Virus record (IMG/VR): IMGVR_UViG_3300017909_002551
Location: 1 to 57,394 of that record
Length of the DNA: 57,394 nucleotides
Direction: 5' to 3' (one strand)
Origin: a virus
This document shows positions 8,283-57,394 of the stretch, one piece after another. The notes under the pieces were generated by a model. It saw only the letters and a list, made by a program, of their open reading frames with translations, searched no databases and had not been told where the DNA came from. The translations under genes were made by a program, and so were the position numbers. How positions within the stretch are numbered: the first letter of the stretch is position 1; every line of letters begins with the position of its first letter.

Positions 8283-8290
8283 GGACGACC
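8283..8290 (+). promoter_or_regulatory. GGACGACC motif directly after the terL stop
   Basis: ATAAGGACGACC. The same 12-mer occurs at 31148-31159. Confidence 0.3.
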
Positions 8291-8320
8291 CCTCTATAAC
8301 AATAAGGCAAATTAGACGTC

Positions 8321-10234: not shown

Positions 10235-10440
10235 TGTCCACCGAAACTATCAATTCGCGGGCTAAGGCCATGGAGCCAGACCTTGAGACGGGTGTTGTCG
10301 ATTACGTGCACGCCGTCTTTGAGCAAGTAAACCGCAACCAGCAGGACTGGGGCGCACAAAACGCACAGCTCATTGCAAAACTACAGGCACGGGTTCGAGA
10401 CCTCGAGATTGAGGTAGAGAACCTGAAAGGAAGGCTCTAA
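10234..10440 (+). CDS. Small coiled-coil protein (68 aa)
   Basis: Overlapping stop/start with both neighbours (TAATG at each end). Heptad-like C-terminus LIAKLQARVRDLEIEVENLKGRL. Confidence 0.5.
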   Translation: MSTETINSRAKAMEPDLETGVVDYVHAVFEQVNRNQQDWGAQNAQLIAKLQARVRDLEIEVENLKGRL

Positions 10441-37200: not shown

Positions 37201-40200
37201 AATGGCTGAGTACCAAATTTCTGAAATAGACAGGGAGCTGGACAAGATATTTCCTGACCAAGGGTCAGCAGAACCTGTGTATGTCAAAGCAGATAATGTT
37301 GTTAAATTTGATGACGGCGCGACATACAACGTCCAAGAAAGCAGCCTGATTAATGCCATAGTAAACGACCTTATGAATCGGGATGTTGGTATTAGTCAGG
37401 AAGCCCTGAGTAAATCAGCTCAGTCAGCTCCTCTCGAAATGAATGGAACCGAGACTTACGCGTGGCTCAAATCATTAGTAGACCCAAGCGGAAAACGTCC
37501 GTCTCTGGCTGAGCGTGAGATACGGATGACGCTCAACAACATAGGTGTGGACGGTGCGACAGAGACTGTCGAAGGAAAGACCGCACTGGTTGTCTTCCAC
37601 AATGAAAACGTGCGGCCAGTTGATGATAACTACTTTGATGAAACATCAATAGACACAGAGATTGGGTTCGCATCAATGCCTGCCGTTCGTGCAGTCAACA
37701 CCGCATTCACGTCTACAGCATTTGAAGGTCTAACTCTTGGCCCGCAGCACGCTACATCTCTTGGTGTGGCGCTCGACCAAGCTGGAATGCCACCGTCGGC
37801 AACAAGTGGAATGGTCAAAATGACCAAGGGCAAAATACCTGATGCCCGAGAAGCTGGCGCTGTGCAGCGTCTTTGGAACAAGGGGTTCCTTGAGAACTCA
37901 GAACGTCTACGCAGAGAGGGGTTACACTGGTTTGCCGACTGGATATCGCCAGCCCGAGACTCTGGTACTGGGCACTTCGAGCGGATTAACGGCAAGACAG
38001 GGTCAATCCTTGTGCCCCTGTTCAAGCAGTTGCGCTCTCTAAAGGACAGCCCTGGAACACTAAACTCCTGGCTGCGCTCCCAAACGCAGTACACGTTTAT
38101 GCCAGAAAATTTCCGCGCTAAACAACCTGGGTCTCACAAAAAAATCGTGAACGCCTTGCGTAGACCAACAGGCAACCGCTTTGAGCAGAGCATGGATGCA
38201 GCCGAACTAGCTGCATACAAAAACATACGGGGTATCTTTGACCGTCTGCACGGTGAGATGAAAGCCCAGGGCATCATGATTGGGACAGTAAATAACTACT
38301 TCCCACAAGTGTGGAATGTAGAGAAGATACGTCAGAACGAAGATGCTTTCATGCAGTCTATGGCCAACTACTTCAAGCGTGAGGCCGAAGACCGCAACGT
38401 CTCCATCAATGACAATGAGGCCAAAGAAGCGGCTCGTCGAGTTATGGGCAACCTTATAGACGATGACGGCGTCTACACACCGCCGCCAACAGGCGGCAGC
38501 CGCGACGTGACTGGCGACCACATCGACTATCAGCGTCTTATCCGGCTGGACAAATTCGTTGAAGAGCTGGATGACGTTGGCCAATACCTTGAGGATGACC
38601 TTGAGGCCATCATGTCAAAGTATGTTGATGGCGCTGTCCGACGCATCGACTTCTCCGAGAAGTTCGGCCAGCAGTCTCATGGTTTCCACGATTACATGCT
38701 AGTTATCGAAGACTCTGGTGACATGACTGACTCGATTGCTCACCTACTCTCTACTGTGAAGGTGTCTAAGCGTGAGCTTCGTTCTTTCGAGAGCAACAGC
38801 AATGATGTCGTAGATGTTGGTAGCCTCGAGCGCATCACCCCCATGCCATTTGACGACAAAGTCATGGCAGTGTCAGCCGCGCGAGAAGCCATACAGCGTG
38901 CAGAAGAGGGGCCCAGTGCAATCAAAGACTATTTGATGTCCCTGGACACAAGCAATAACGACATCGACAGGGCGGTTTATGAAAAGCGCGTTGATGCCAT
39001 CACTGGCGCAATCATGGACAGGCAGGCTCTGGGAGCCCGCCCGCATGCAGACGTAGTAAAAGCCGCCAATGGCACGATGCGAGCAATCATGCGTAAGCCT
39101 GTAGATGCTTCTAGTCCGTTCTTCCAGGGCGCTCACGCGTTTTCCAAGAACATGCGTAACTTTAACTCGGTCACTTTGCTGGGCTTTACCACGCTGACAT
39201 CCTTGGGCGACCCTGCGTTGACCGCCATTCGTACTGGTAGCCTCAAGGCTTGGTCTCAGGGTATGGCTAAATACGCCTCAGACCCACACTACAGGGACTT
39301 CATTAGGTCTTCTGGGGTTGCCATCGAGAACATTGTGCACGAACGCATGACTGGCTTGTATGGGACAACGGCGTCTAAAAACACTGTTGCATTTTTTAAT
39401 GGCACGATGCTGACACCGTGGACAAACACTCAGCGAGAGATGGCTGGGGCTGTTGGTTATGAGTGGTTCAAGTCTGAGTTCAACAGAGCTATTACAAACT
39501 TCAACCCCAACGCTCCATTAGGTCAGCAAAACAGAACCTTCAAAGCAGCATATCGCGTGTTGCGGCGCTACGGTCTGGACGACCTTCTTGCACAGAACCG
39601 TCGTATCGACAATGTCAGTGACTTTAACGACATGCCCGAGCTTCGTTCTGCCATTAACAAATTTGCTAACGAGACGATATTTACGCCAAACCCAGACCAG
39701 CTTCCTTTGTGGAGCCAAACTCCTGTCGGCGCGATGATAGCCCAGCTCAAGTCTTATCCGCTCATGCTTCAACGACTGGTCGCTGACAGCATCAAGCAGG
39801 CCACGACCGTTGACCCTGTGACAGGCGGTGGACGTAGATTTGGTCCGCTACTCATGCTGGCTTCAGTAGCTCCGGCTGCTGGTGCAGGAACGCTGGCCGT
39901 TAAGGACGTTGTACAGAGGCGTGGCGAGGACGGAGACAACCTTCGTGAGCGCTCAGCACAGGACATGGCGGAGCGTCTTGGGTTCGACCCAGGTCTTCAC
40001 GGAGACGTAGACGCATTTCTTGGTTGGTATCTGGAAGGCTTTGTGATGCTCGGGGGCTTGGGTCTCTTGGCAGATATGATGTATCAGACTGCCGAGCAGG
40101 TTGACCAAGGCGGGGCTTACGGAGCCATGAGAACAGCGGGTGTTGTTGGCGGACCGTGGGTCGGAACACTATGGGCTGGATATGATGTTGTGTCTGGTGG

Positions 40201-40402
40201 ATGGGACGCCGCAATGAGAGGCGACGAAAACGGAACAGGCAAAGAAAGAGCTGCTGTCCGTGCTCTAGCTCAGCGCGTCCCTGTTGCTGGTGGCATCCGA
40301 ACATTGAGAGAAGGTGTGGTCGACGAGGTAGCAGGCGAGCCTACAAAACCAGGCAAAAAGTCGAGCTCTTGGTCGTCAAACTGGACTACTAAGTGGGATT
40401 AG
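31223..40402 (+). CDS. Giant (3,059 aa) virion/ejection polyvalent protein with zincin-like HExxH motif
   Basis: Uninterrupted 9.18-kb frame. Gly/Ala-rich hydrophobic segments near the N-terminus (GAAGLGQNILAAAMDPLNLVGFGAGGAAAKTAL...) and the C-terminus (GLGLLADMMY...VVGGPWVGTLWAGYDVVSGGW). Ala/Glu/Lys low-complexity region. LQTLLHEMAHWAY followed by PQEFFADQF. Last gene of the virion block. Confidence 0.75.
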   Translation: MAQKFDNNFNTDLFSFDEDVSNVSSYDSSTLSTATGLDAFRDPRFIAELREYYANKGDYFNNDADLIDAFYSDQTWGAMNTGSLAKDIGEAYTSSDRQVTLMRRMKEVYDSTPNFYEEGGRGAAGLGQNILAAAMDPLNLVGFGAGGAAAKTALRAGASTGNVLGAAAKAGAKAEALAGGITEGAFNTLEQVRDKQIGLQDEFSFGRLAGATALGTAAGGALGAGFGALGAGFQAGTRGMDIPGSFTIGRENARLKALDYSDEDIAMMPQEYVKKVLKTDLSRAENVDFQQMDAQAQAEATGAGQEGATGQADGDAAQTQAQEIEDANRTGIDVGRTINIEAIDRELARLADDLRENLENPTVRQEINDQINAFEEMRQLGQRMNNHRSEIAEGLESNDTAKINRAKARLTELNNLRALYDQAIENNDPGIIARIKKAEAEYAAKKAKEEEAAAKAATADAAKAAPAAEAPAADADAQKPASLDDFQFTGDKTKAKAEAAGLTAEDFANESPSGRNGKFNAKDIRRIAKAKGTEPGATPAEAEAALPEEAEAVPADIIYRSENQRKSMTKMLDDAGMDEDDLRALIANGQLKVREDGVTLTTEATKQLRTLTKDARDKNISDEKLFGQAIDALEPIRERLGEEKFMAILQHEPRVIREILRKSDPKGADALMDAVERVLAEDGLQSSVRLTKTQRRRSKIIKDNLIANNPGMSDDVAQAIADGRALAESFQPKPAAKSEMTGTLGDAPVETTAGRTNRGRLQSFLRGNTPIGDGRTVIGRAPMVIRGTEGESQRAGVIYGADQAVAFAEKEILKDFVDPDGVTRSRLEQDLSPVRYVSTGGEEIFGGAATTKSLPNNRKQIQREKAQKGKPYFYDPVTKKFYRDEALMRYMRGEAEKAPGKDVNIDEPSMPERQRLAEIASSFVDEHQDIDRLIAELTNVDTVRVAREAKGNVPDVPNIDADGKILALRPKDPEKPIRVISQKQLQSGADINTLLGKSDINDFEVGYVDGSSTYGTKLAESSFEPFTPGANAPTRAFISSYEASKIPVEIDEGDLSAILTMAETVPLGERGQNPFKILEKLKQGDLNKQKVDEILRATEMYIGWPLSRKQTNVIDFVRALHEFRNKYVPEEIRLPTEALKESQKQLKIHTVNFTASEKREARRLLEVLSGAGKGSPKFADTTILSGFGTANGEYSITGNTIKLASEMVNTEHPRLQTLLHEMAHWAYANVLSNEDRLLFWDGMQKYWDNKGTLYDDVLNMNVPDKALSTAIGIRKKIRTPQEFFADQFMIWATQERLAPKFRDVAYYEGMSQFVSPQWWSTIARYLRNIVDQMLDPNKVDQDLVPLFSKIMPDPERAIAAQEGVVAPTSEGGAALMRRMVDYQLTMDDLQEALDIESPEGIINHALYLADRLKGQSGGTQTRPFRLMASTNGLARTLSKRIYEAAEIPKDVVDSGDMDAFLRTDEFISSMERRAERVVRALDGITDGETEGQAMSAFEIIDTIISQGRKKYNSLKAEETNILSDLSLAPRKKEHPYRKKQRFIGANAKRRRKADKKKARSEAQAVQQVNEIDVTETATVEIEATFSPRTAPTDKLQKVFEENKNDYGRHIGMELLRRTRAEVQDPSLVQIEVTDPMVSEAMNREVTFTVGVDKDSVTPSGPFALREAQNALSQRVPVISHGMKTMYARINMLSGAEQGETTVGLLNAIGGNYESARVPEIFMGDYNSDAFKSARSRLRNMAVAMEGGDDSVVDNLIDFLIGSEMLVIKDEVAASMGVETAEQVVNILKSSMRKNPADLDFGDAADVLVEQVSENIAYITNGLMPNGLKEKFPMIDRYGDVFTPPEASFSSLPGRSDTIRARMSTPMASEFAMDSFASSSPGRKNAILNFVGNGVGGGDTPVPYFGSRVSGGVVSPVKTGFGRAKRVFLSANDADERANLTAEQVSEAMAGQPSEATEDVLNLLESRARYQELSAKMRDRAEQGNSDVFSAEAEMAEYQISEIDRELDKIFPDQGSAEPVYVKADNVVKFDDGATYNVQESSLINAIVNDLMNRDVGISQEALSKSAQSAPLEMNGTETYAWLKSLVDPSGKRPSLAEREIRMTLNNIGVDGATETVEGKTALVVFHNENVRPVDDNYFDETSIDTEIGFASMPAVRAVNTAFTSTAFEGLTLGPQHATSLGVALDQAGMPPSATSGMVKMTKGKIPDAREAGAVQRLWNKGFLENSERLRREGLHWFADWISPARDSGTGHFERINGKTGSILVPLFKQLRSLKDSPGTLNSWLRSQTQYTFMPENFRAKQPGSHKKIVNALRRPTGNRFEQSMDAAELAAYKNIRGIFDRLHGEMKAQGIMIGTVNNYFPQVWNVEKIRQNEDAFMQSMANYFKREAEDRNVSINDNEAKEAARRVMGNLIDDDGVYTPPPTGGSRDVTGDHIDYQRLIRLDKFVEELDDVGQYLEDDLEAIMSKYVDGAVRRIDFSEKFGQQSHGFHDYMLVIEDSGDMTDSIAHLLSTVKVSKRELRSFESNSNDVVDVGSLERITPMPFDDKVMAVSAAREAIQRAEEGPSAIKDYLMSLDTSNNDIDRAVYEKRVDAITGAIMDRQALGARPHADVVKAANGTMRAIMRKPVDASSPFFQGAHAFSKNMRNFNSVTLLGFTTLTSLGDPALTAIRTGSLKAWSQGMAKYASDPHYRDFIRSSGVAIENIVHERMTGLYGTTASKNTVAFFNGTMLTPWTNTQREMAGAVGYEWFKSEFNRAITNFNPNAPLGQQNRTFKAAYRVLRRYGLDDLLAQNRRIDNVSDFNDMPELRSAINKFANETIFTPNPDQLPLWSQTPVGAMIAQLKSYPLMLQRLVADSIKQATTVDPVTGGGRRFGPLLMLASVAPAAGAGTLAVKDVVQRRGEDGDNLRERSAQDMAERLGFDPGLHGDVDAFLGWYLEGFVMLGGLGLLADMMYQTAEQVDQGGAYGAMRTAGVVGGPWVGTLWAGYDVVSGGWDAAMRGDENGTGKERAAVRALAQRVPVAGGIRTLREGVVDEVAGEPTKPGKKSSSWSSNWTTKWD

Positions 40403-44086: not shown

Positions 44087-45959
44087 AGGGTTATCGGTCA
44101 TACCGATACACGCAGAAACGAAGCGTCCCGCTATCAAGTGGCGCGATTACCAAAGTCGGTTGCCGACCGAAGAAGAAGTTACCAACTGGTTCACAACGTG
44201 GCCCGAAGCGAACATCGCTGTCGTCACTGGAGAAGTATCAGGCGTCGTCATTGTTGACTGCGATAATGATGCTGCGTTCAATGCGGCGCTTAGCTGCGGA
44301 ATGCGCTCGCCCATCGTCGTATCGACCAAGAGAGGTTGCCACCTTTGGTTCAAGCATCCTCGCGATGGGAAGAGACGGGGCCCGAGAGCTGGGAATAATT
44401 CCACTGGTACGGACTGGCCAAGAACGTCGGGCTTGGACTTCCGAGGTGACGGTAGCTACGCGCTTCTACCGCCTAGTAAGGGCTATAGATGGAAAGTCCC
44501 AGGAGACCTAGACCGATACGATGACATGCCAGTTTGGAAAGACTGGTCGGGCGCAAGCCTGCTTCCTAAAACCATTTCTGAATTTGTCTTTGAAGACCTC
44601 AACCTGTCTGACATTCGCTTTGACCCATCCACTCTACTTACAGAATGGGAGCGCACTGAGGCTTTTATAAAGGCCAATGATTTTCCGCATGGTAAAATAC
44701 CTTCTGGTCAAGGTAACGCAAGGAATGACAGGGTCATGCGTTACGCCAGCGAAAGTGTGTTGACTGGCGCTTTCGGCCCCGACCTAAGGGTGCGGTGCCG
44801 CGCGTTTATGGACCACTTCTTTGTCGACCATCTCGCGGATAAAGAGTTTGAAGACACACTTGCCAGCGTGGAGCGTATGGAGAGGTCGAACCACCCAGAG
44901 CGCTTCGACCCCAACACTGGGGAGTACATATACAAGAGGCCAGACATTGAAGTCTTTGAGGGTGAACGGCGGGAGCGCAAGCTGATTACTGTCGGTGACA
45001 GTGATGACCTAATCGAGTCTGGTAAAAATCGGCAGTACTTCGTAGAGCCTTGGTTGCGACCTCAGACAATCATACAAATCCATGGGTACTCAGGCTCGGG
45101 CAAGACCATGTTCTTGCAACACGCCCTGTATTCCATGTGTGCTGGCCAGCGGAGCTTCGGCCCGTTTGAAATATATAAGCCCGCTAAGGTTTTGTATTTT
45201 GATTTTGAGCTATCACAAGGAGACCTCGGTCGTCGTCTGTCTGACCTTCGTAATATGTACGGCGACGCAGAAGACCGCTTCTCGGTATGGACACCGTGGT
45301 TAGAAGACAAGGAAATTAACATGCGCTCACCAGAGGGTCTGCGTGAGATGCAGGGCTGGGTAGAATACTTCCGGCCAGACGTGGTTGTTTTCGATACGAT
45401 ACGCACAGCCTGGTCTGGCATGTCGGAGAATAGCGCCGAAGAGTGGGCCGACATCAACCGTCTGGCGCTTCGTCTACGCAACGCTGGAATGTCTGTCATA
45501 ATGCTGCACCACTCAAACAAGCCAGGTGACGATGGTCTTGGGCGCGAGGCTGGGTCTACCAACCAGCTTACAGTTCTGGAAACCCAGATACGCATCGCCC
45601 AGATATACCGAGATGAAGAGACTGCGAAACAAAAGGCGGGCATGTGGGACGGTAACTATGACCGTTCACCAATGGACTTGCTACAACGCAAGCTGGACGA
45701 CGACTGGTATGTGTCCATGGCGATGGAAGTCAGGTACGGAAAGGTTCGCGAATGGACTGACGTCCATGACCCAATACAATTCATCGGCTGGGCTCAGCAC
45801 AAAGTAAGTGGCGAGAAGAAATTGGTCAGTAGCTTTAGTACAAAACGCCGAGCGAAAGAGCTCGCCCTCACTGGAAAGCAACCCATCGAGATAGCTCAGG
45901 AGCTTGTAAAGCCTCTCGATGTTGTTAACTCGTGGCTCGGGATAGGCGAAGATGTATGA
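44040..45959 (+). CDS. Bifunctional primase-polymerase (PrimPol) / RecA-fold helicase (639 aa)
   Basis: The N-terminus LSVIPIHAETKRPAIKWRDYQ...IAVVTGEVSGVVIVDCDND is PrimPol-like. The C-terminal half has Walker A GYSGSGKT and Walker B VVVFDTIR, of the RepA/DnaB-like (AAA_25) type. Confidence 0.8.
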   Translation: MNSDTTLNAALEYLDEGLSVIPIHAETKRPAIKWRDYQSRLPTEEEVTNWFTTWPEANIAVVTGEVSGVVIVDCDNDAAFNAALSCGMRSPIVVSTKRGCHLWFKHPRDGKRRGPRAGNNSTGTDWPRTSGLDFRGDGSYALLPPSKGYRWKVPGDLDRYDDMPVWKDWSGASLLPKTISEFVFEDLNLSDIRFDPSTLLTEWERTEAFIKANDFPHGKIPSGQGNARNDRVMRYASESVLTGAFGPDLRVRCRAFMDHFFVDHLADKEFEDTLASVERMERSNHPERFDPNTGEYIYKRPDIEVFEGERRERKLITVGDSDDLIESGKNRQYFVEPWLRPQTIIQIHGYSGSGKTMFLQHALYSMCAGQRSFGPFEIYKPAKVLYFDFELSQGDLGRRLSDLRNMYGDAEDRFSVWTPWLEDKEINMRSPEGLREMQGWVEYFRPDVVVFDTIRTAWSGMSENSAEEWADINRLALRLRNAGMSVIMLHHSNKPGDDGLGREAGSTNQLTVLETQIRIAQIYRDEETAKQKAGMWDGNYDRSPMDLLQRKLDDDWYVSMAMEVRYGKVREWTDVHDPIQFIGWAQHKVSGEKKLVSSFSTKRRAKELALTGKQPIEIAQELVKPLDVVNSWLGIGEDV

Positions 45960-46470
45960 GATAATAGACAACGCTTACTCTGCTCGTGACAGAGATGACA
46001 TGTTTGAGTTTGTGCGTAATAGCAAATACAGAATTGGGTGGGCTGACAGAAATTTTAATGACGTAAACGGGCAGCGTCGAATTATGTATAGCCCCTTTAC
46101 GTTAGACGAAGTTGAAGACATGGGGGTTTTGCGCTTGCACAACAGCCCACGTATTGACGAGCTCGTTCGGGGGAGAACCCCAACTCAGAACATCATCAAT
46201 CTGGCCGAACCCTCAAACGTCTTTTGCCCCCATACTCACGGAGACCTAGACACTCTGTTGTATTATTGCAACACGCGATGGGCACCTGAGTGGGCTGGAG
46301 AAACAATCATATATTCTGAGCATGATTACGAAGCTGAACATGCTGTGTCCTTCAAGCCTGGTCGAGTGCTGTGGCTAAACGCAGGCGTCATGCACAGTGT
46401 GCGTCCCCCAAGTCAGGCGGCTCCTGATTACAGGTTTACGTTTGCTGCGTTCTTTTCGACGCAGGACTAG
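45952..46470 (+). CDS. 2OG-Fe(II) oxygenase-like protein (172 aa)
   Basis: CPHTHGDLDTLLYYCN (HxD), GETIIY, GRVLWLNAGVMHSVRPP (distal His) and RFTFAAFF (Arg). Confidence 0.55.
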   Translation: MYEIIDNAYSARDRDDMFEFVRNSKYRIGWADRNFNDVNGQRRIMYSPFTLDEVEDMGVLRLHNSPRIDELVRGRTPTQNIINLAEPSNVFCPHTHGDLDTLLYYCNTRWAPEWAGETIIYSEHDYEAEHAVSFKPGRVLWLNAGVMHSVRPPSQAAPDYRFTFAAFFSTQD

Positions 46471-47166: not shown

Positions 47167-47283
47167 TAGAGATTAAAACTTTCATTAAAAAGTAATGCGA
47201 CCTGGGCGGAGCCCAAAGGTCGCTCATTAATTAATTTCAATAACTCAACGTCACAGACGTTAAGTATCATATTCGTGAGCTTA

Positions 47284-47310
47284 TGTCAACTTTGCACACC
47301 GAAAGGTGTT
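47284..47310. promoter_or_regulatory. TGTCAAC plus CACACC-GAAA-GGTGTT palindrome
   Basis: Same half-site family as 43786-43803 and 2808-2900. Located in the divergent region upstream of the 47371 gene. Confidence 0.4.
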
Positions 47311-47370
47311 GCATGTGTCGCCAAATCGCGACATCCTGCCTTCATTGAACAACTAAAGAGGAGGTTGGCC

Positions 47371-47667
47371 TTGCCAAAAGTCGTCCAAGTCACGGACGAC
47401 AATATGGATTGGCTCCGAGAAAACCACACTAATGTGACCCTTACTGAAGCCGCAGACCGCATCGGTGTCTGTGTCGATACCCTTAAAAGAATACTCGTTC
47501 GCGAAGAACTCCGTGAGTTTGAAGGTGCTAAGTATGTTGTCGCCCGCAAAGAAACTGTAGAGACGTGGACTCGCGCCTGCATGGACTGCGGGTGCACAGA
47601 AGAGCGCCCAAAGAACTGGTACTACTGCAAGAAATGCAGGGCATCTCGCGGGTACGACGACGAATGA
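47371..47667 (+). CDS. HTH plus zinc-ribbon DNA-binding protein (about 98 aa; start uncertain)
   Basis: GAGGAGG 6 nt before the TTG at 47371 (alternative ATG at 47404). LTEAADRIGVCVDTLKRIL is HTH-like. CMDCGC...YYCKKC is a four-Cys motif. Confidence 0.5.
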   Translation: MPKVVQVTDDNMDWLRENHTNVTLTEAADRIGVCVDTLKRILVREELREFEGAKYVVARKETVETWTRACMDCGCTEERPKNWYYCKKCRASRGYDDE

Positions 47668-48023
47668 GTAGTCGAAAGGGCAACGATTACGAGACAGAGC
47701 TCTCTAAATTTCTCTCGGCAACCTTAGGTATAGACGTTAGCCGCACGCCGTTGAGCGGCGGCGGCTTCTCAGATGTTCAGATGGCCGACCTCATTGGCAC
47801 GCCGGACATCTGGGTAGAGGCCAAGAGGACGCAGAGGGCCGACGTCTACAGAGCTATGCAGCAGGCGGAGGAAGGCATCGCTGCCAGGAGCTGCCCAGAT
47901 GCAGCAGTCGTAATAACCAGAAAGAACAACGTCCCCACAAAAAACTCCCTTGTCGTCATGAGACTGGACGACTGGGTCGACCTCTACCGCGCATACTTAA
48001 CACTGACAGGAGTAATTAAATGA
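47664..48023 (+). CDS. Hjc-like PD-(D/E)XK nuclease / resolvase (119 aa)
   Basis: KGNDYETELSKFL...SRTPLSGGG...ADLIG...IWVEAKRT (D...ExK). ATGA coupling to the upstream gene. Confidence 0.5.
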   Translation: MSSRKGNDYETELSKFLSATLGIDVSRTPLSGGGFSDVQMADLIGTPDIWVEAKRTQRADVYRAMQQAEEGIAARSCPDAAVVITRKNNVPTKNSLVVMRLDDWVDLYRAYLTLTGVIK

Positions 48024-48274
48024 AAATCAATAATAGTTTTGAGACGCTCGAGGACATGCTGTCCGAGCTAAACAACGTCTCAGAGTCTGGCGGCATCGTC
48101 GAGAACGTCGTCCTCCTGGCTCGTGTCATTGATGACAACATGGAAGAGGAAGAGCGCCTGTTCCTTGGTTGGTCTCCAGATATTTTTGATGACCCGACCC
48201 GTGTCCTTGGCCACATCGAGCTCGTCAAGGCTCGCCTGTTCGACCTGATGTCTATTCGCCGCGAAGCCAACTAA
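48020..48274 (+). CDS. Hypothetical acidic protein (84 aa)
   Basis: ORF track. ATGA overlap with the upstream gene. Confidence 0.5.
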   Translation: MKINNSFETLEDMLSELNNVSESGGIVENVVLLARVIDDNMEEEERLFLGWSPDIFDDPTRVLGHIELVKARLFDLMSIRREAN

Positions 48275-48287
48275 GAAAGTCTATTCG

Positions 48288-48836
48288 TTGTCAGACGTGC
48301 GTTACTGTAAAGGTTGTCAGACGGAGCGGCCTCTGAGCGAGTTCAGAAAGCGCGGCGCGTCTGCGGGCAAAAGAGAAGGCCAACCCTACGGCAAGTGTTT
48401 CGACTGCACGCGCGTACAGGCTTACTCCGACAGGTTCAACACCGAAGACCCTGGGCCCTACCTGGTTCAGCTCACTGGCGTCCGTAGACGTAATCAAAAG
48501 CACATGTTTACGATTGACTCGGCCTACGTTGTGAACCTCTGGTTCAAACAAAAAGGTCTGTGTGCTCTCAGCGGACGAAAGATGACACACATCAGAGGTA
48601 ACGGTCGTGTAAAAACCAACGCGTCTCTCGACCGCATAGACAGCAAAAGACCCTATGAGCCTGGTAATGTGCAACTCGTCTGCGCAGTCACCAACTTTAT
48701 GAAACACGATATGACCGTCAAGGAAATGAAGGACTGGTGTGCCGCAGTACTGGCCTATCAGGACGACCAAAAGCGCTTCAGCATCTACTCTGTCTTTAAC
48801 AGATGGAGACAGAGATGGCAGCGAAAAGACGCGTAA
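48288..48836 (+). CDS. HNH-family (His-Me finger-like) endonuclease with N-terminal zinc ribbon (182 aa)
   Basis: YCKGCQ...GKCFDCTR, then ASLDRIDSKRPYEPGNVQLVCAVTNFMKHD. The usual first His is replaced by Arg. The start codon is non-ATG and uncertain. Confidence 0.45.
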   Translation: MSDVRYCKGCQTERPLSEFRKRGASAGKREGQPYGKCFDCTRVQAYSDRFNTEDPGPYLVQLTGVRRRNQKHMFTIDSAYVVNLWFKQKGLCALSGRKMTHIRGNGRVKTNASLDRIDSKRPYEPGNVQLVCAVTNFMKHDMTVKEMKDWCAAVLAYQDDQKRFSIYSVFNRWRQRWQRKDA

Positions 48837-49072
48837 CCAAGGTATGTAAAAACAGAGCCCTCAATAAACCCTTCCGCACACCAAAAGGACCCAAGAAGTC
48901 TGCGGTCTGCGTGAAAGACGGTAACTCTGTAAAGGTCGTTCGTTTTGGCGACAAGAACATGACAATCAAGAAGAACATCCCCGCAAGACGTAAGTCTTTT
49001 CGCGCGCGCCATAACTGCGCCAACCCTGGCCCTAAAACTAAAGCGAGGTATTGGTCATGCAAGGCTTGGTAA
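48815..49072 (+). CDS. Small basic conserved protein (85 aa)
   Basis: MAAKRRVTKV...KPFRTPKGPKKSAVCVKDGNSVKVVRFGDKNMTIKKNIPARRKSFRARHNCANPGPKTKARYWSCKAW. GGAGA RBS. Confidence 0.55.
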   Translation: MAAKRRVTKVCKNRALNKPFRTPKGPKKSAVCVKDGNSVKVVRFGDKNMTIKKNIPARRKSFRARHNCANPGPKTKARYWSCKAW

Positions 49073-49243
49073 TTTGTTTCGCTTGCTCGGAGAAACCCTG
49101 CAATAGGGAGACTTGTCCGTGCAAGTGCCACAAGGAGAAGGGCGATGACCCCAAGAATTAAGTCCGTGCGCCCGCTTGGGCGGCGCACTCGTACAGGGAA
49201 CATGAAACACAAGCCGTGTCCATGCACTGCAAAGCGAGGAAGC

Positions 49244-49417
49244 AATGGCCGCAAGTCGTAAGAAAAAATCTAAGTCCAAGAAGGACGCCTGTTACCACAA
49301 GGTCAAGTCAAGATATCGAGCATTCCCGAGCGCTTACGCGAGCGGCGCCTTGGTTAAGTGTAGACGTGTTGGAGCAAAAAATTGGGGCAACTCATCCAAG
49401 AAACGAAAGAAAGCCTA
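49244..49417 (+). CDS. Small basic conserved protein (57 aa), not in the ORF track
   Basis: Hand translation: MAASRKKKSKSKKDACYHKVKSRYRAFPSAYASGALVKCRRVGAKNWGNSSKKRKKA. GAGGAA RBS. Confidence 0.5.
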
Positions 49418-50137
49418 GACAAGGCCCTCGAGCTGGCTAACGAGCAGTTACCCAGCATACTCATGTCTGTTGGTCTTCTCTGCTCGGCGGTGGTCTTGTA
49501 TGAGCTATTCATCAAGCAGAACTGGGCTTTGTTGCTGTGGTACTTCTTTGGAACCATTCTAATGATGGTGTTGGCTTCGGCCTTCTACCATAGATACGTC
49601 TGCCACAAGACGTGGGAATGCCCCGAGTGGTTGCGCGTACCATTCATCCTAGTCTCTGGTGGTCTCGGGCTGGCCCCCGTTATTCAGTGGTGCGCCATAC
49701 ATCGTCAGCACCACGCCAACCCAGACGTTGCGGGCGACGCTCACGGCCCACAGTTCTCCATCTGGCACAACCTATCAGTCAGCTTCATACCTCCCAAGCT
49801 CATGTATGTAAGGGATTTGCTCAAGGACAGGCTGTATCAAGCCCAGTACAAATACTATTTACCTTTGTCTTTTGCGACGGCGGCAGCCTTTACGGCTGCC
49901 TTCGGTTTCGCTGAGTGGTGCTTCGTCTACGTCACCATGGTCGCCCACCAGGTAGCCAGCGTCTACACCGGACACCTGAAGTGGTTTCCAAAAAACCACC
50001 TCATCGCTGCAATATATTCTCCTGAAGTCTACCACTCGGAGCACCACCGGAACGCGCAGAACGCACGCCTTGGTCTCGTTGACATCCCGTTCTTTCTTCT
50101 CATCCAGTGGTTCCCGCACAAGGGGGGACGTGCCTGA
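49382..50137 (+). CDS. Membrane fatty-acid desaturase (Delta9 / DesC-like), compact 251 aa
   Basis: Three His boxes: HRYVCH, HRQHHANPD and HSEHHRN. Hydrophobic helices lie before box 1 and between boxes 2 and 3. TTG start with GGAG RBS (alternative ATG at 49463). Confidence 0.75.
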   Translation: MGQLIQETKESLDKALELANEQLPSILMSVGLLCSAVVLYELFIKQNWALLLWYFFGTILMMVLASAFYHRYVCHKTWECPEWLRVPFILVSGGLGLAPVIQWCAIHRQHHANPDVAGDAHGPQFSIWHNLSVSFIPPKLMYVRDLLKDRLYQAQYKYYLPLSFATAAAFTAAFGFAEWCFVYVTMVAHQVASVYTGHLKWFPKNHLIAAIYSPEVYHSEHHRNAQNARLGLVDIPFFLLIQWFPHKGGRA

Positions 50138-50580
50138 TGGACCCGCTTACCACAGCAGTCGGTGCCTTCGCCGCCATCAAGGCGGGTGTCAAGGCTGGCC
50201 GTGACATACAGGACTTGGCTGGTGAAGTCGGCAAGTTGTGGAGCGGCATCGACGAAGTAAAAAACAATTACCAAAAGGCCAAGAACAGCCCCTTCAGAAC
50301 AGTGGAAGAGGAGGCCATGGACGAATTTGTGGCGAAAAAACGTGCGGAAGACCTAGAGCACAACCTCCGTGAAATTGTTATCGCAACACGTGGGCACTCT
50401 GGCTGGCAGGAACTCATACGTTTGCGCGCCGACATCATGAAGAGGCGGAAGCAGGCAAAGATAGACGCCGCAAAAAAGAGAGACGAACTAATCGAGGCCG
50501 CTCTGTGGACGCTACTTGTAGTCGTGTTGCTGGCAGCTTTCGGGTTGTTTGGAGCGATAGCTTGGAAGGAAATGAAGTGA
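50137..50580 (+). CDS. Hypothetical protein with C-terminal TM anchor (147 aa)
   Basis: The ATG overlaps the desaturase TGA. C-terminus ALWTLLVVVLLAAFGLFGAIAW. Confidence 0.5.
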   Translation: MDPLTTAVGAFAAIKAGVKAGRDIQDLAGEVGKLWSGIDEVKNNYQKAKNSPFRTVEEEAMDEFVAKKRAEDLEHNLREIVIATRGHSGWQELIRLRADIMKRRKQAKIDAAKKRDELIEAALWTLLVVVLLAAFGLFGAIAWKEMK

Positions 50581-50804
50581 TGTCGGGACGACGAAAGACC
50601 AAGAAATCAAATAGTTTGAGAAAGTGGTTCGCACAAAACAACGGCAAAGGCTGGATAGACTGCAAAACTGGCAAGCCGTGCGGACGCAAAAAGGGTGAGA
50701 AACGTAAGGGTTATCCAGCATGTCGCCCAACAAAAGCACAGTGCACTTCTGCGGCGAGGAAGAAGACGGGGCCGAAGAGGATAAGCTGGAAGAGTGGAAG
50801 GTAG
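50580..50804 (+). CDS. Small basic Cys-containing protein (74 aa)
   Basis: MSGRRKTKKSNSLRKWFAQNNGKGWIDCKTGKPCGRKKGEKRKGYPACRPTKAQC... The ATG overlaps the upstream TGA. Confidence 0.5.
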   Translation: MSGRRKTKKSNSLRKWFAQNNGKGWIDCKTGKPCGRKKGEKRKGYPACRPTKAQCTSAARKKTGPKRISWKSGR

Positions 50805-50808
50805 AATC

Positions 50809-51195
50809 ATGTGGGGAACTATCGCGTCTAGCGTTTCATCCATTGCCTCTCAAGTACTCAAGAACCGCCAAATCAAGGCAGAAGCTAAGGCGAGAGTACA
50901 AGTGGCTAAAGTCGAGGCCGAAATTGCGCAAATCGAAAATGCGGCGAAGAATGTTGCCGACTACGATTTACAGGCGCTCAAGGAGACGCGCTATTCGTGG
51001 AAAGACGAGGTAGCCCTATGTGTCGTGCTCGCACCCTTCATAGGCAGTTTCCTGCCTTGGACGCAAGAATACGTCGCAATCGGGTGGCAACATCTGACAA
51101 CACACGCGCCTGATTGGTACGGTTGGATTTTTTGCGGGGCCGTGGCTGGAAGTATGGGAATCCGCTGGGCAGTGACTGGCTTCAAAAAAAAATGA
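50809..51195 (+). CDS. Holin-like membrane protein (128 aa)
   Basis: Amphipathic N-terminus followed by hydrophobic segments VALCVVLAPFIGSFLPW and WYGWIFCGAVAGSMGIRW. Lies upstream of the endolysin. It resembles the 3-TM GTA-type holin family as I recall it. Confidence 0.45.
   Translation: MWGTIASSVSSIASQVLKNRQIKAEAKARVQVAKVEAEIAQIENAAKNVADYDLQALKETRYSWKDEVALCVVLAPFIGSFLPWTQEYVAIGWQHLTTHAPDWYGWIFCGAVAGSMGIRWAVTGFKKK
51184..51192. repeat. A9 homopolymer at the holin-like / ArfA-like junction
   Basis: TTCAAAAAAAAATGACC encodes KKK-stop and contains the A of the next ATG. Confidence 0.9.
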
Positions 51196-51320
51196 CCAAG
51201 AGGCGGGAGCCAAACCCATACGCAAGGATGCTGGTCTCCCCCCTGTTCAGGATGGTGAAACGCCCGAGCGCCAAGACGTACAAGCGCAAGCCAAAACATC
51301 AGAAAGCAAACGACCAATGA
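51192..51320 (+). CDS. arfA: ArfA-like (alternative ribosome-rescue factor A-like) mini-protein (42 aa)
   Basis: MTKRREPNPYARMLVSPLFRMVKRPSAKTYKRKPKHQKANDQ, compared with E. coli ArfA as I recall it (...[28 protein letters not shown]...). ATGA coupling at both ends. Confidence 0.5.
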   Translation: MTKRREPNPYARMLVSPLFRMVKRPSAKTYKRKPKHQKANDQ

Positions 51321-51700
51321 CACTAGACGACCTCAAGTATTTCACACGTGACGAGTTACGTTGCTCGCATACAGGAGACGAAGGCATGGACGTTCAGTTC
51401 ATGCAGTTCATCGAGGAGCTTCGGGAGGAGCTGGGCTTCCCATTCCGAGTTACGTCTGCATACCGTAGTCCCGAGCACCCAATCGAAAAAAAGAAGTCTC
51501 GTCCAGGCACGCACACCACTGGCCATGCCATAGACATCAACGTCTACGGCGACCAGGCAGTCGCCCTGGTTCGACTCGCCCTGGCAAAAGGCATCCAGCG
51601 TGTAGGTGTTGCACAAAAGGGGCCAACGTCCTCACGCTTCATCCACCTGGATGACGCACAGGAAGACCACTTCCCCAAACCATTTATCTGGAGTTACTAG
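51317..51700 (+). CDS. Endolysin, zinc peptidase M15 (VanY / D-Ala-D-Ala carboxypeptidase-like)
   Basis: FRVTSAYRSPEHP...GTHTTGHAIDINV...RFIHLDD (His/Asp/His metal ligands). Confidence 0.8.
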   Translation: MTLDDLKYFTRDELRCSHTGDEGMDVQFMQFIEELREELGFPFRVTSAYRSPEHPIEKKKSRPGTHTTGHAIDINVYGDQAVALVRLALAKGIQRVGVAQKGPTSSRFIHLDDAQEDHFPKPFIWSY

Positions 51701-52474
51701 GTGGCACACAATGGCAAGGCAGGTGGTCAGCAAATACAGCCCAAAGACGAAGGTGAAAAGAAGAAGGAAGAAGCGTGGACTTCACTTGCGGAAGAAGCAC
51801 GGACCTCGGCATCACCTGAGGGTGAACCGTCAATCCTCTCGATTCCGTGCCTGACCCCAGAGCAGGCGCAGGCCGAGGCTGACACAGTCAAAGCCCTTAA
51901 AAATATTTGGATACCCCGTGGTGAAGGCACCTTCTATACGATAGGTGCTTCAACCTACAATGACCTCATAATTTCTGAGGGTCATGCCACGTACTACCAA
52001 GTCGCCGAAAAGGTAAACCCCATAATAGAAGACGCATTCGGCCCCTTGATGGGCCTCATGCGAGCAGTGATAGGCAAGGTCTACCAACGTGAATGTATAG
52101 ACCTGCCGTTCGCTGGCCTCATGGGCTTCCACATCTTCAATAGTTCTGGTGACGAGAGGAGAGAAGAGGGCTCTAACATCCATACAGACGAACCATTCCA
52201 GCGCCTGTTGTGGACGGAGCCCTTCCATGACCCGTTCAGTTTTACGTTGCCACTCGAGTTACCTGACGGGGACGGGGGACTAGATTATTGGGTGAAGGGT
52301 GAGCCGTATAGACGTTACCTTCCATACGAGATAGGCCACTTGTATCTCCACTCTGGCCGCTTCCCGCACAGGATAGCCGCGCCCACGTGGCCATCGGACG
52401 AAAAGCCCCGCATCACTTTGCAGGGACACGGGGCAATTCTCCAAGACACTAATCGTGTGGCAGTCTATTTCTGA
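51701..52474 (+). CDS. 2OG-Fe(II) oxygenase-like protein (257 aa; GTG start uncertain)
   Basis: SNIHTDEPF (HxD), GGLDYW, LHSGRFPHRI (distal His) and RITLQGHG (Arg). Confidence 0.5.
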   Translation: MAHNGKAGGQQIQPKDEGEKKKEEAWTSLAEEARTSASPEGEPSILSIPCLTPEQAQAEADTVKALKNIWIPRGEGTFYTIGASTYNDLIISEGHATYYQVAEKVNPIIEDAFGPLMGLMRAVIGKVYQRECIDLPFAGLMGFHIFNSSGDERREEGSNIHTDEPFQRLLWTEPFHDPFSFTLPLELPDGDGGLDYWVKGEPYRRYLPYEIGHLYLHSGRFPHRIAAPTWPSDEKPRITLQGHGAILQDTNRVAVYF

Positions 52475-52809
52475 TGAAACTCTGCACAGTCCGTTCGACT
52501 TTTCTGCATGGAGACAAGGGTCTCACGCAGTTCAGCCAGTTCATCAATAGCCCACGCGTCTAGTGCATCACGGTTCTTGTGAACACGACAGTCCAATACC
52601 GCAATTAAGGTGTCGTAAATGTCCTCAAAATGAGGCGTAGTGGGACGCTCTGGTGGCACAACGGCCTCATGAGCGCTGGTTAAATACATCGTAAATGTAC
52701 TGAATGTTGTCTTAAGGTGTCGCTTGATATCTTTAGTAAACGCCCAAGCCCTTAGCAGGGGAGCGCCTTCGACCACTCGGCCACCTCTCCAATTACGATT
52801 CATAGTCAA
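52465..52809 (-). CDS. Hypothetical protein downstream of the integrase (114 aa)
   Basis: ORF track. 10-nt convergent overlap with 51701..52474. Confidence 0.45.
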   Translation of the reverse strand: MTMNRNWRGGRVVEGAPLLRAWAFTKDIKRHLKTTFSTFTMYLTSAHEAVVPPERPTTPHFEDIYDTLIAVLDCRVHKNRDALDAWAIDELAELRETLVSMQKSRTDCAEFHQK

Positions 52810-52856: not shown

Positions 52857-53864
52857 TTACATAACCAACGCGTTAACCGCGTCCTGTTTGACGTGACTTG
52901 GCGGCACCATATACCGCATCACCATCGTCAGACTGGTGTGCCCAAGTAAGTCTGCGACCGTCCTTGGATTTGTCCCACGCTCCAGCAAGCGTGTTGCAAA
53001 CGTGCGTCTGCAATCATGTGGACGAAAGTTTTTAACCCCAACGCTCTCGGCAAACTTGATGACTGCTTTACCTGCCGCCCGCTGGTCTCGCCATTTTGGA
53101 AACACCCATTCTTCGGGGTCGGGTACTGGGGGTTTCCCTGTCGCTTCACGGTAAGCCAGCCCATTTTTAATCAACACTCCCACAAGCGGCACGACCCTGC
53201 TGTCTTCCTTGCCGCCCTTGCGTTTACGAGTGCGCAAAACAACGTAGGGCTCCTGCTCGGTGAAGTGCACGTCCTTAAATTTGAGCGCGATTGCTTCTCC
53301 AATCCTGGCACCAGTAAGCAACAGGAATTGTGTCAGCCCCCACGCGTGTTTATTCTCTTTCGAGTAGCCTCTCGTCAGCGCCCAGTACTCGTCCTCATTC
53401 AGCACACGTAGCCTTGGCTCACCGTCTGATGGGCGCTCAATATCTGGCACCTCGTCTATCCAGCCACGTTTGCGAGCGTGACGGATGACTGGCATAAAGG
53501 CATTAACTTCACGCCGCACAGTTGGACCAGTGACCGCATCAAGACGCTCGTCCAGCCAGTCCTCAAGAAAATTCTGGTTTATCTGGTCAACCGTCATGCC
53601 ATCCCACTCGTCCATAAACTTGGACAAGTATCGTATGGTCGTATTAGACGTGAAGTCACGTCTCTTCAAATAGCTTTCGACAGCATCTGAAAATGACTTC
53701 TGGGTCGTGCTTGACCGACGACCCGTGACCATCTCGTGCTCCATCTGGATGCGAATATGATTTGCGATTTCCTTGTCCGAGGTCTTGGTCGTCTTGCGAA
53801 CACGCTTTCCGTTGACCTGACCGACGACGTAGTAGGTATCGCCCCTCAGCTTAAGACTTAGCAT
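52857..53864 (-). CDS. int: Tyrosine integrase
   Basis: TGARIGEAIALKFKDV (Arg I), HDCRRTFATRLL (HxxR) and LLGHTSLTMVMRYMV (His and catalytic Tyr). SAM-like N-terminal domain. Confidence 0.9.
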   Translation of the reverse strand: MLSLKLRGDTYYVVGQVNGKRVRKTTKTSDKEIANHIRIQMEHEMVTGRRSSTTQKSFSDAVESYLKRRDFTSNTTIRYLSKFMDEWDGMTVDQINQNFLEDWLDERLDAVTGPTVRREVNAFMPVIRHARKRGWIDEVPDIERPSDGEPRLRVLNEDEYWALTRGYSKENKHAWGLTQFLLLTGARIGEAIALKFKDVHFTEQEPYVVLRTRKRKGGKEDSRVVPLVGVLIKNGLAYREATGKPPVPDPEEWVFPKWRDQRAAGKAVIKFAESVGVKNFRPHDCRRTFATRLLERGTNPRTVADLLGHTSLTMVMRYMVPPSHVKQDAVNALVM

Positions 53865-56188: not shown

Positions 56189-56358
56189 TTCTTGCTCCTC
56201 TCAAGTTCCCAAATAACTTTCTTCACTCGTGCCATGTCCTTCGCTGGCACACGTCTCTGCTTCACTTCCCATCCGACTTCCCACCAGAAACCCCACGGCC
56301 ACTTGCGAGGTGTCAGTGCGAACCAATGCGTAAGTACTCTGCACTTACGCGACTTCAC
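56167..56358 (-). CDS. Doubtful Trp-rich small ORF (63 aa)
   Basis: Fills the gap between cobT and the next gene but overlaps both. No RBS seen. Confidence 0.2.
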   Translation of the reverse strand: MKSRKCRVLTHWFALTPRKWPWGFWWEVGWEVKQRRVPAKDMARVKKVIWELERSKKWKSRTL

Positions 56359-57394
56359 GAGCGTCAGCCTTGAAGCGCTTGCCTAGAAGCATCTGTGCGA
56401 CCTTCTTCATCGTCTCACCAGCAAGCTGGTCGATGTCATGCACAGACACATTGTTCGAGTAATATTCGCTGACGTCGTCCATGATGCCGAACCCAACCAA
56501 GTCAATTCCGGCAATGCCCTCAAGGGTCTTGCAGACAGCTTGTAGACGCTTCTCTTCAGCCCAGTTTGATGTGCCGACAGGCTCACCATCCGAGAACACC
56601 ATTATGATTTTGCGTTTCTCGGGACGTGGCATCACGTAGTTCTGGTATATGTACATGAGAGCGTCACCATCCGTGTTGGCAGAGCCAGCCCTCACGGCAG
56701 TCGAATACTTGGCGATGTCATTGCGAGCCTGACGCAGTGGCGTGTCGTAGTCCTTCAACAGGAAGGTGCTAAGCGCATTGCCACGACCGCGACCGTCAAA
56801 GCCATAGCAGTCGTTTTTGTATATCCGACGCTTGTTGTGATACTCGTGGGCATACGTGTTGAACATGGTCACGCTGAATTGAATGTCGACCTTCTCAAAC
56901 ACCTCGCACATTGCAATCGCCGCTTGGACACACAACTCAGCGGGCTTGCCTTTCATCGAGGCCGAACCATCGAGCACCATCATCACGCTGGTGTCTAAGT
57001 CAGGTGTGTCCTGCCGCTTGCGATAAATGTTTGGAGAGCCAGCCATGCCACGAACGAGAGCACGACCATCAAGCTGGCCTTCCTCGTAGCCACCTCGCCA
57101 TGTACGCTCCTGTGTCGACACAAGCGCGCGCTCGACGTTACGACGTATCTTGTTGAGGCGTGAGCCGATAGACTTGCGAATGAAATCGTACTCTTCAGAG
57201 GGTGCGACCATCTTGGTCAGTTCGTCCCACCACTCTTCGGCGATGTTGCCGCAACCCTTCTTGTAGTGCGCATCATACTTGGCACCCATGGCCGTGTACG
57301 AACCGCTCACACCAGACTTCGACTTGACGATGCTCTGCATGGTCTTGTCTAGGTTCGGGTCATAAGCCTCGTCTGGCGCTGTCCCAAGTCCAGG
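56345..57394 (-). CDS. cobT: CobT-like vWA protein, C-terminal part (continues from 142..1029 across the circular junction)
   Basis: vWA MIDAS VMMVLDGSASMKG. The frame stays open from 57340 to the window end and is continuous with the hand-translated N-terminal part. Confidence 0.85.
   Translation of the reverse strand, partial: PGLGTAPDEAYDPNLDKTMQSIVKSKSGVSGSYTAMGAKYDAHYKKGCGNIAEEWWDELTKMVAPSEEYDFIRKSIGSRLNKIRRNVERALVSTQERTWRGGYEEGQLDGRALVRGMAGSPNIYRKRQDTPDLDTSVMMVLDGSASMKGKPAELCVQAAIAMCEVFEKVDIQFSVTMFNTYAHEYHNKRRIYKNDCYGFDGRGRGNALSTFLLKDYDTPLRQARNDIAKYSTAVRAGSANTDGDALMYIYQNYVMPRPEKRKIIMVFSDGEPVGTSNWAEEKRLQAVCKTLEGIAGIDLVGFGIMDDVSEYYSNNVSVHDIDQLAGETMKKVAQMLLGKRFKADAREVA
57254..57394. repeat. 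Closure overlap: identical to 1-141
   Basis: Direct comparison of both ends. Confidence 0.9.

Follow-up and report, generated by a model that had tools for sequence, protein, structure and literature searches.

The window analysed here is the whole of IMG/VR record IMGVR_UViG_3300017909_002551 (57,394 nucleotides), and the gene under study is an open reading frame (ORF) on its plus strand at positions 49382 to 50137. The profile searches, the alignment of relatives and the structural models together indicate that this gene probably encodes a functional integral-membrane di-iron enzyme which desaturates acyl chains with O2 and belongs to the 'first' (Delta-9-type) desaturase branch, SCD/DesC, and that it would serve as an auxiliary metabolic gene (AMG) of a temperate CRP-810-type phage of marine Alphaproteobacteria. 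The window contains the complete genome of a temperate phage of this CRP-810 type, and the ORF is a real gene under purifying selection (ratio of nonsynonymous to synonymous substitutions, dN/dS, about 0.14). The gene lies in a bona fide phage genome, is conserved in related phages and has cellular homologs, as is required of an AMG. A preliminary description of this DNA had proposed a Delta9/DesC-like phage membrane desaturase. The core of that proposal is supported by the profiles, by the match to stearoyl-CoA desaturase (SCD1, E 1.4e-36) and by the fold, while the Delta-9 position and the acyl-lipid substrate are features that we infer.

Metal-binding motifs, predicted fold and family assignment

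The gene product was analysed in an alignment of 60 relatives, in which the mean column identity was 28%. The three-box order HX3-4H, HX2-3HH, HX2-3HH was present in the window protein and was invariant in 60/60 relatives. The ORF of 251 amino acids (aa) was found at exactly the positions, and its three histidine boxes in the order, given in the preliminary description. The features of the gene and its product are listed below.

49382 to 50137, plus strand: desaturase gene, 251 aa and stop, supported by the ORF, homologs and dN/dS
49371 to 49374, plus strand: GGAG ribosome-binding site, 8 nucleotides 5' of the TTG start, read from the sequence
49448 to 49603, plus strand: first transmembrane hairpin, residues 23-74 (predicted helices 23-44 and 48-74), from AlphaFold models and hydropathy
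49589 to 49606, plus strand: histidine box 1, HRYVCH, residues 70-75 (H70, H75), both histidines in 60/60 relatives
49700 to 49750, plus strand: histidine box 2 with its extension, HRQHHANPDVAGDAHGP (H107, H110, H111, D115, D119, H121), counterpart of SCD1 HRAHHKFSETHADPH
49856 to 49972, plus strand: second transmembrane hairpin, residues 159-197 (predicted helices 159-174 and 176-197), from AlphaFold models
49973 to 49975, plus strand: H198, invariant histidine ending transmembrane helix 4 (TM4), ninth candidate metal ligand, aligned with the histidine of SCD1 'NSAAH'
50033 to 50047, plus strand: histidine box 3, HSEHH, residues 218-222 (H218, H221, H222), inside SPEVYHSEHH (family consensus GEGYHNNHH)
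50081 to 50083, plus strand: D234, invariant aspartate 3' of box 3, from the alignment of 60 relatives

The HRQHH of box 2 occupies residues 107-111 and is followed by ANPD (107-115 in all). The extended box 2 type HRxHHxxxDxxxDPH was recognised, as HRQHHANPDVAGDAH aligns to SCD1 HRAHHKFSETHADPH, and box 1 is of the HX4H type. The residues invariant throughout the 60-sequence alignment were H70, H75, H107, H110, H111, H198, H218, H221, H222, D119 and D234. The nine invariant histidines align with the SCD1 ligand motifs HRLWSH, HRAHH, the histidine of NSAAH and HNYHH. In SCD1 nine histidines hold two irons (five bind Fe1, four bind Fe2), and cytochrome b5 delivers the electrons (PMC10359943). 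All the candidate metal ligands were retained in every intact copy of the desaturase.

The asparagine of NxxxH, which stands four residues before the TM4 histidine, was not found; the position is V194 in the window protein and valine or leucine across its clade. This asparagine is in SCD1 a second-sphere residue holding water at Fe2. It was absent in 18/60 family members, 12 of them among the 54 relatives outside the window clade. The loss of asparagine alone is not diagnostic because these 12 members fall outside the clade, and its use as a sign of new chemistry was down-weighted.

The structure of the window protein was predicted using AlphaFold, and the predicted local distance difference test score (pLDDT) was 78.7 for the model from a shallow alignment and 94.8 for that from a deep alignment. 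The models predict four transmembrane helices in two hairpins with the histidine boxes outside the hairpins, in accordance with the hydrophobic helices that had been described as flanking the boxes. Foldseek searches with both models gave SCD1 structures as the only significant PDB matches (E 2e-5 to 1.7e-4, template modelling score (TM-score) 0.60-0.69), and AlkB and the Scs7p hydroxylase were not significant (E>1). The top four matches were SCD1 (E ~2e-5 to 6e-5, TM-score 0.62-0.69), and the model of pLDDT 94.8 matched SCD1 at a TM-score of 0.68. Of the solved structures, a stearoyl-CoA desaturase is therefore closest to the modelled protein, rather than any hydroxylase or alkane monooxygenase. 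A best fold match to a hydroxylase or ketolase had been named in advance as an outcome that would speak against a desaturase, and only SCD1 was significant. Among predicted viral structures, the best match was a 233-aa 'OLE1 fatty-acid desaturase' of an uncultured phage.

Family assignment from the single protein alone was insufficient with Pfam, NCBIfam, PHROGs and PDB searches, and was superseded by profiles. PHROGs gave weak partial matches only, and the PDB sequence search reached SCD1 at E 0.057. The clade profile (A2) was then searched exhaustively against 1.84 billion representative proteins and retrieved 2,768 relatives at E<=1e-3, of which 172 reach E<=1e-10; most of the relatives are 230-260 aa long and aligned over nearly the whole length. 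PF00487 (FA_desaturase) was matched by 48 of the 60 sampled relatives (best 9e-25), and 44 matched phrog_35201, an unannotated homologous family in PHROGs. In NCBIfam, 53/60 matched the DesA-family model alone and none approached its equivalog cut-off of 400 bits; the ketolase and hydroxylase models had no match among the 60. Ketolase and PEDS1-type families were likewise without a match in Pfam or NCBIfam, both for the window protein and for the 60 relatives. The motifs of the relatives are those of textbook Delta-9 enzymes, HRxHHxxSDTxxDPHSP and GEGWHNNHH.

The 60-sequence family profile matched human SCD1 at E 1.4e-36 and mouse SCD1 at 5.7e-35 over profile positions 11-232, compared to only 2.3e-7 for AlkB. 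This profile is dominated by canonical members, and the link of the clade itself was therefore checked separately. The A2 clade profile matched SCD1 at E 0.0016, and its hhalign comparison with the alignment of chromosomal compact desaturases gave 99.5% probability (E 1.2e-22, 186 columns). Compared by BLASTP, the window protein and the FA_desaturase-domain protein annotated in Pelagibacter phage Mosig were 27% identical over 204 residues (E 3e-12). Homology to bona fide FA_desaturase members could thus be traced through profiles and intermediate sequences. The FA_desaturase profile search that had been suggested as a check was negative for the window protein alone and positive via homolog-built profiles.

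Coding evidence, proposed reaction and competing explanations

The desaturase ORF begins with TTG, and the upstream 57-aa gene (49245-49418) shares 37 nucleotides with its start. The next canonical in-frame start is the ATG at codon 28. The N-terminal residues of the window protein are kept in the homologs P0001, P0002, P0004 and P0005, and the TTG start is favoured over this ATG because residues ~13-27 are conserved in homologs and the N-termini of four are identical. Homologs numbered 12 in a collection of 5.8 billion proteins, at 51-96% identity and all metagenomic, and 16 desaturase loci were found in IMG/VR. The dN/dS was 0.135 against the closest copy (dS 0.10) and 0.14-0.16 against copies of ~63% identity, where dS is near saturation; loci L011-L013, which belong to the second viral group described below, are left out of this set. 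The GC content of the gene and that of its third codon positions (GC3) agree with the adjacent phage genes.

One copy, on a 48-kb contig (L001, 10016-10719), carries a single frameshift near residue 137, beyond which the neighbouring frame encodes the C-terminal half with 76% identity. The assembly behind this contig had been polished with pilon. The frameshift looks like an assembly indel error or a very recent lesion or pseudogene, and not like decay.

Several observations weigh against the assignment as a Delta-9-type desaturase. The Pfam search of the window protein gave no PF00487 match even at E<=10, only 2/11 clade members matched this family (best 6.9e-8), and the NCBIfam DesA-family model NF049918 aligned only with residues 46-126 and scored 25.6 bits (cut-off 400); the window protein itself is below every curated family threshold. 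The clade also departs from the consensus near the metal site, with valine or leucine for the asparagine of NxxxH, SPE where the consensus before box 3 has GEG, DAH instead of DPH after box 2 in part of the clade (proline to alanine) and the H189-Q190 pair specific to the window clade. Pfam misses the protein because of the departures at these neighbouring positions, and a changed chemistry or specificity is therefore possible. The regiospecificity is not readable from the sequence. No electron-donor domain was detected in the ~30 window ORFs scanned, and the clade alignment scan of 185,579 species-representative genomes gave no close relative or prophage copy.

On the assignment as a Delta-9-type desaturase, the enzyme would insert in the host inner membrane and draw two electrons per turnover from a host ferredoxin/flavodoxin-type carrier. 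Carriers of this type are used by bacterial and cyanobacterial desaturases. The window protein has no fused cytochrome b5 domain by Pfam, and a CxxC motif screen of the window returned only HNH or zinc-finger-like proteins and spurious frames. O2 would be activated at the di-iron site and two hydrogens would be removed from a saturated C16/C18 chain, giving a cis double bond, most likely at C9. By analogy with DesC and Pseudomonas DesA, the acyl chain would most likely be already esterified in a membrane glycerolipid. The unsaturation and fluidity of existing membrane lipids would then rise without new fatty-acid synthesis, which would suit an infected cell. Expression in the lytic phase rather than from the prophage is probable because the gene lies in the rightward replication-to-lysis block, opposite to the integrase and LuxR genes.

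The same fold and metal site could serve another reaction or substrate, namely another regiospecificity, a hydroxylase-type outcome, or a non-standard lipid such as ornithine lipids or aminolipids, long-chain acyl-homoserine lactones or isoprenoid chains. This explanation is unlikely. The replacement of asparagine by V/L194, of GEG by SPE and of DPH by DAH agrees with it, as do H189-Q190 and H129, which are conserved in the clade only, and the position of the window protein below the Pfam and NCBIfam thresholds. The C-terminus also shows a weak, sub-threshold match to FA_hydroxylase (PF04116; 14.9 bits, cut-off 31), and small sequence changes are known to switch the desaturase/hydroxylase outcome in this superfamily, as in FAD2-type enzymes. 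Against these points, SCD1 is far the best match both by sequence (1.4e-36 compared to 2.3e-7 for AlkB) and by fold, where Scs7p and AlkB were not significant, and the ketolase and hydroxylase models of NCBIfam matched 0/60 relatives. The HX4H form of box 1 and the HRxHH...D..D.H form of box 2 are typical of Delta-9 enzymes, and the missing asparagine, seen in 18/60 members with 12 outside the clade, is not a clade-specific signal.

A more speculative and unlikely proposal is that the clade is a phage-specific re-tuned Delta-9 branch. The altered active-site surroundings (valine or leucine, the invariant H189-Q190, SPE and DAH) would then lead to a different position, substrate or outcome, and the branch would have spread across at least two unrelated marine phage lineages. 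Unsaturated fatty acids are normally produced in Alphaproteobacteria through the anaerobic FabA/FabB pathway. If this proposal is true, temperate phages of Alphaproteobacteria would gain an O2-dependent remodelling of existing lipids.

That the product is a catalytically inert membrane protein, kept for membrane perturbation, lysis timing or superinfection exclusion, is improbable. The gene stands among small membrane proteins just upstream of the endolysin, residues 15-61 show a weak Phage_holin_5_2 match, and a phage-encoded electron donor was not found among the ~30 ORFs scanned. The holin match (13.8 bits, cut-off 29.2) is far sub-threshold and covers one hydrophobic helix only. An inert protein is not expected because all nine metal-binding histidines stay invariant; these and the two aspartates are unchanged in all intact copies (51-96% identity) and in distant relatives, and the dN/dS of ~0.14 points in the same direction. 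The idea of a chance ORF, or of a host gene on a mis-binned or chimeric contig, can practically be dismissed: it has nothing more in its favour than the unusual TTG start and the 37-nucleotide overlap with the upstream gene, and is opposed by the closed genome (142-nucleotide terminal repeat) with its full set of phage hallmarks, the synteny in ten viral contigs, the GC and GC3 match, the purifying selection and the lack of close relatives in the 185,579 reference genomes.

Phage genome, neighbourhood and distribution

The window carries a 142-nucleotide exact direct terminal repeat, positions 1-142 being identical to 57253-57394. It is taken as a complete, terminally redundant (circularly permuted) genome of ~57.25 kb because its ends repeat, and its GC content is 51.9%. 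The hallmark genes include the large terminase, portal, major head protein, tail fibre and a putative 3,059-aa virion protein. The replication and recombination genes are a Prim-Pol primase, RuvC-like and PD-(D/E)XK resolvases and an HNH endonuclease, and an M15 endolysin, a tyrosine integrase, a LuxR-type regulator and CobS/CobT are also encoded. The closest cultured phage is Roseobacter phage CRP-810, with identities of 76% for the major capsid protein, 62% for the large terminase and 54% for the primase; its genome of 57.7 kb is similar to the window in size and gene order. The desaturase shares the rightward block 47275-52474 with the resolvases and the endolysin, and is oriented away from the integrase and LuxR genes. 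The phage context near lysis genes that had been described earlier is borne out by the hallmark genes and by an endolysin 1.2 kb downstream.

51317 to 51700, plus strand: Peptidase_M15_3 endolysin, ~1.2 kb downstream of the desaturase
50137 to 51195, plus strand: small genes between desaturase and endolysin, context only

No second recognisable endolysin was found in the window besides M15. Among the products of the interval 50137-51195 are two possible holin or spanin candidates, namely a protein of 147 aa whose C-terminus contains a hydrophobic segment (phrog_32327) and a membrane protein of 133 aa (phrog_2524). Homologs of the CRP-810 GH108 endolysin and holin (gp31/gp32) were not found in the window, and the M15 peptidase had no match at E<=1e-3 to CRP-810 gp18 of the D-Ala-D-Ala carboxypeptidase family; these two results indicate that the lysis module is exchanged within this phage family. 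A promoter and terminator scan of 46.5-53 kb gave counts not above those of shuffled controls. Directly 3' of the endolysin in all syntenic relatives is a 257-aa protein of unknown function (51701-52474, plus strand), with no Pfam match and a weak match to phrog_24927.

Three small, very basic proteins rich in lysine, arginine and cysteine are encoded around the desaturase (48803-49072, 49245-49418 and 50505-50804, plus strand); the two that were scanned match phrog_7595 and phrog_727, both of unknown function. The 172-aa protein downstream of the primase (45952-46470, plus strand) is just sub-threshold as a 2-oxoglutarate (2OG)-Fe(II) oxygenase (25.7 bits, cut-off 27). CobS-like and CobT-like cobaltochelatase genes, an AMG pair typical of CRP-810-type phages, lie on the minus strand at 1032-2765, 511-1020 and 56324-57379, with the CobT match divided between the two ends of the window. 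The 3,059-aa protein is a single ORF at 31223-40402 (plus strand), and 'internal virion protein D' is the largest orthogroup in the CRP-810 paper.

Between the 257-aa gene and the integrase (52857-53864, minus strand), a 42-bp stretch at 52750-52791 (minus strand) is 100% identical in Rhizobium phages RHph_TM3_3_3 and RHph_I1_23. It corresponds to the 5' part of tRNA-Ser, with 91% identity over 44 nucleotides to annotated E. coli tRNA-Ser genes; ARAGORN found no full tRNA in it and Rfam gave no match. The stretch is probably the attP core. In CRP-810, according to its paper, integration takes place in a tRNA-Thr gene.

The desaturase gene is syntenic in ten related viral contigs (L001-L010), where the conserved order is primase, RuvC, PD-(D/E)XK, HNH, small basic proteins, desaturase, small membrane proteins, M15 endolysin, 257-aa protein and integrase. 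The CRP-810 paper places one of these carriers, IMGVR_UViG_3300017724_000003 (L010), in Subgroup VI as a complete member and weakly predicts a roseobacter as its host. The same source gives prophages of the family in SAR11, Poseidonocella and Sphingomonadaceae, and we infer that the host is most likely a marine alphaproteobacterium because family prophages are known there. CRP-810 itself has no desaturase and carries a 2OG-Fe(II) oxygenase and an S-adenosylmethionine (SAM) methyltransferase near that position, so the desaturase occupies a variable accessory slot.

The methyltransferase near this slot, CRP-810 gp19 (11408-12196, minus strand), is a class I SAM methyltransferase. It was considered as a cyclopropane-fatty-acid synthase and this is not claimed, as CMAS reached only 22.4 bits against 27 among generic methyltransferase matches. 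A cyclopropane-fatty-acyl-phospholipid synthase AMG is reported for other CRP-810-family subgroups in the CRP-810 paper. The CRP-810-type family may have repeatedly acquired lipid enzymes that modify acyl chains.

A second, unrelated viral group (L011-L020, IMG/VR contigs of 28-149 kb) carries a desaturase 51-55% identical. Its background includes ribonucleotide reductase and cytidyltransferase and no CRP-810-type neighbours, and only a small basic-protein domain is shared with the window besides the desaturase. The presence of the gene in this unrelated group indicates that the desaturase clade moved horizontally between phage lineages. In L011-L013 and L015-L020 a phrog_7595-like domain with a fused HNH-like N-terminus lies ~3.3 kb upstream of the desaturase, and a 466-aa neighbour protein in this group had no match in deposited phages. 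Near-DNA and tblastn searches with the desaturase gene gave no match in 50,697 deposited phage genomes. Partial alignments with the cellular relatives retrieved gave ~26-37% identity.

The size of the protein was compared with that of compact relatives. A typical compact relative, P0050, has 622 homologs; most of these are 245-270 aa long and contain PF00487, and contigs of 0.3-3.0 Mb carry several of them. A genome scan found 270 relatives, including those of Bdellovibrionales, Rhodobacterales (for example Yoonia sp. 72), Micavibrio, Oligoflexales and Acidobacteriota; the chromosomal ORF lengths, measured for 80 of the 270, were mostly 243-310 aa with a median of ~290. Compared to SCD1, the compact proteins do not have parts of the N- and C-terminal cytosolic regions. 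Compactness is a trait of the family as a whole and does not reflect a reduction in viruses. The earlier suggestion of a minimal catalytic core, much shorter than cellular enzymes, is ruled out by the 243-310 aa chromosomal relatives, and the Mosig protein is shorter still at 216 aa.

Comparison with known desaturases and significance

SCD1 (PDB 4ZYO, 4YMK and 6WF2) and the modelled window protein have in common the four-helix, two-hairpin membrane fold, the nine-histidine order HX4H, HX2HH, TM4 histidine, HX2HH and the HRxHH...D..D.H extension after box 2. The window protein differs in that it is only 17-19% identical to SCD1, is shorter by ~50-70 residues, with its cytosolic parts at the N- and C-termini trimmed, and has valine for the asparagine of 'NSAAH'. 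The bacterial host offers no eukaryotic cytochrome b5/b5-reductase partners, and the substrate would probably be lipid-bound acyl chains, unlike the acyl-CoA of SCD1. AlkB, Scs7p/FA_hydroxylase, the CrtW ketolase and CarF/PEDS1 are likewise histidine-box di-iron membrane enzymes, but gave no above-threshold profile match to the window protein, and the fold matches to AlkB and Scs7p were not significant. The chromosomal compact desaturases and the NF049918 DesA family (Pseudomonas phospholipid Delta-9 type) resemble it in size class and motif order, whereas the chromosomal proteins carry the canonical DPHSP and GEGWHNNHH.

Desaturases have been described earlier in phages. The cyanomyophage viral fatty-acid desaturases (vFADs) vFAD-I/II are DesC-like, complement yeast ole1 and make Delta-9 C16:1 (Roitman et al. 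2017, PMC5776448). They resemble the window gene as marine-phage AMGs of Delta-9/DesC type with three histidine boxes and a proposed role in membrane fluidity. They belong to lytic T4-like cyanomyophages, whereas the window is a temperate CRP-810-type phage of heterotrophic Alphaproteobacteria (compared by description); they are also close to host DesC with Delta-9 activity demonstrated on C16, whereas the window protein is without a close cellular counterpart. Twelve vFADs from viruses of Arctic sea ice and cryopeg brine were modelled on 4ZYO (Zhong et al. 2020, PMC7300359). These likewise come from phages of marine heterotrophs, with the SCD1 fold and a proposed fluidity role in cold and salt, and differ in environment and viral lineage (compared by description). 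A pelagiphage-like scaffold with a desaturase is also mentioned (PMC11480375).

Among cultured phages, Mosig_00080 (QOI69044.1) of Pelagibacter phage Mosig EXVC030M is a 216-aa 'putative FA_desaturase domain protein'. Like the window protein it is a compact phage desaturase homolog, and all boxes of the two align; its phage is a cultured one of a marine alphaproteobacterium. It differs in belonging to a 141-kb Kyanoviridae phage and in having the canonical box 3 GEGYHKNHH. In the Mosig region 7318-10329 the desaturase has an Asp/Arg hydroxylase-domain gene as its neighbour. An NADPH-dependent FMN reductase and a peroxiredoxin lie two genes downstream of the Mosig desaturase and could be a phage-encoded set of redox partners, whereas the window has no such neighbour.

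The novelty implied in the preliminary description does not hold, as the cyanophage, sea-ice/cryopeg and pelagiphage-like desaturases were already known; phage desaturases being established, the window gene is a divergent example and not a new phenomenon. What is new is the clade, which is absent from deposited phages and from the 185,579 reference genomes. The CRP-810 family paper gives nine AMGs and mentions no desaturase in its text or in the part of its supplement that was checked. The gene is probably unreported for this family because standard Pfam annotation misses the clade.

Knowledge of the desaturase mechanism is unchanged by this finding, and the protein size is ordinary. Functional proof for phage desaturases comes from the cyanophage enzymes only. 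Surveys of AMGs in viromes that apply Pfam thresholds give too low a count of the viral genes for lipid remodelling. With this gene the class of phage desaturases reaches the CRP-810-type phages, which are temperate phages of marine Alphaproteobacteria with a global distribution and among which CRP-810 provides a natural desaturase-free relative for comparison. The gene is thus a concrete candidate for the question whether phages of heterotrophic marine bacteria alter the unsaturation of host membranes during infection.

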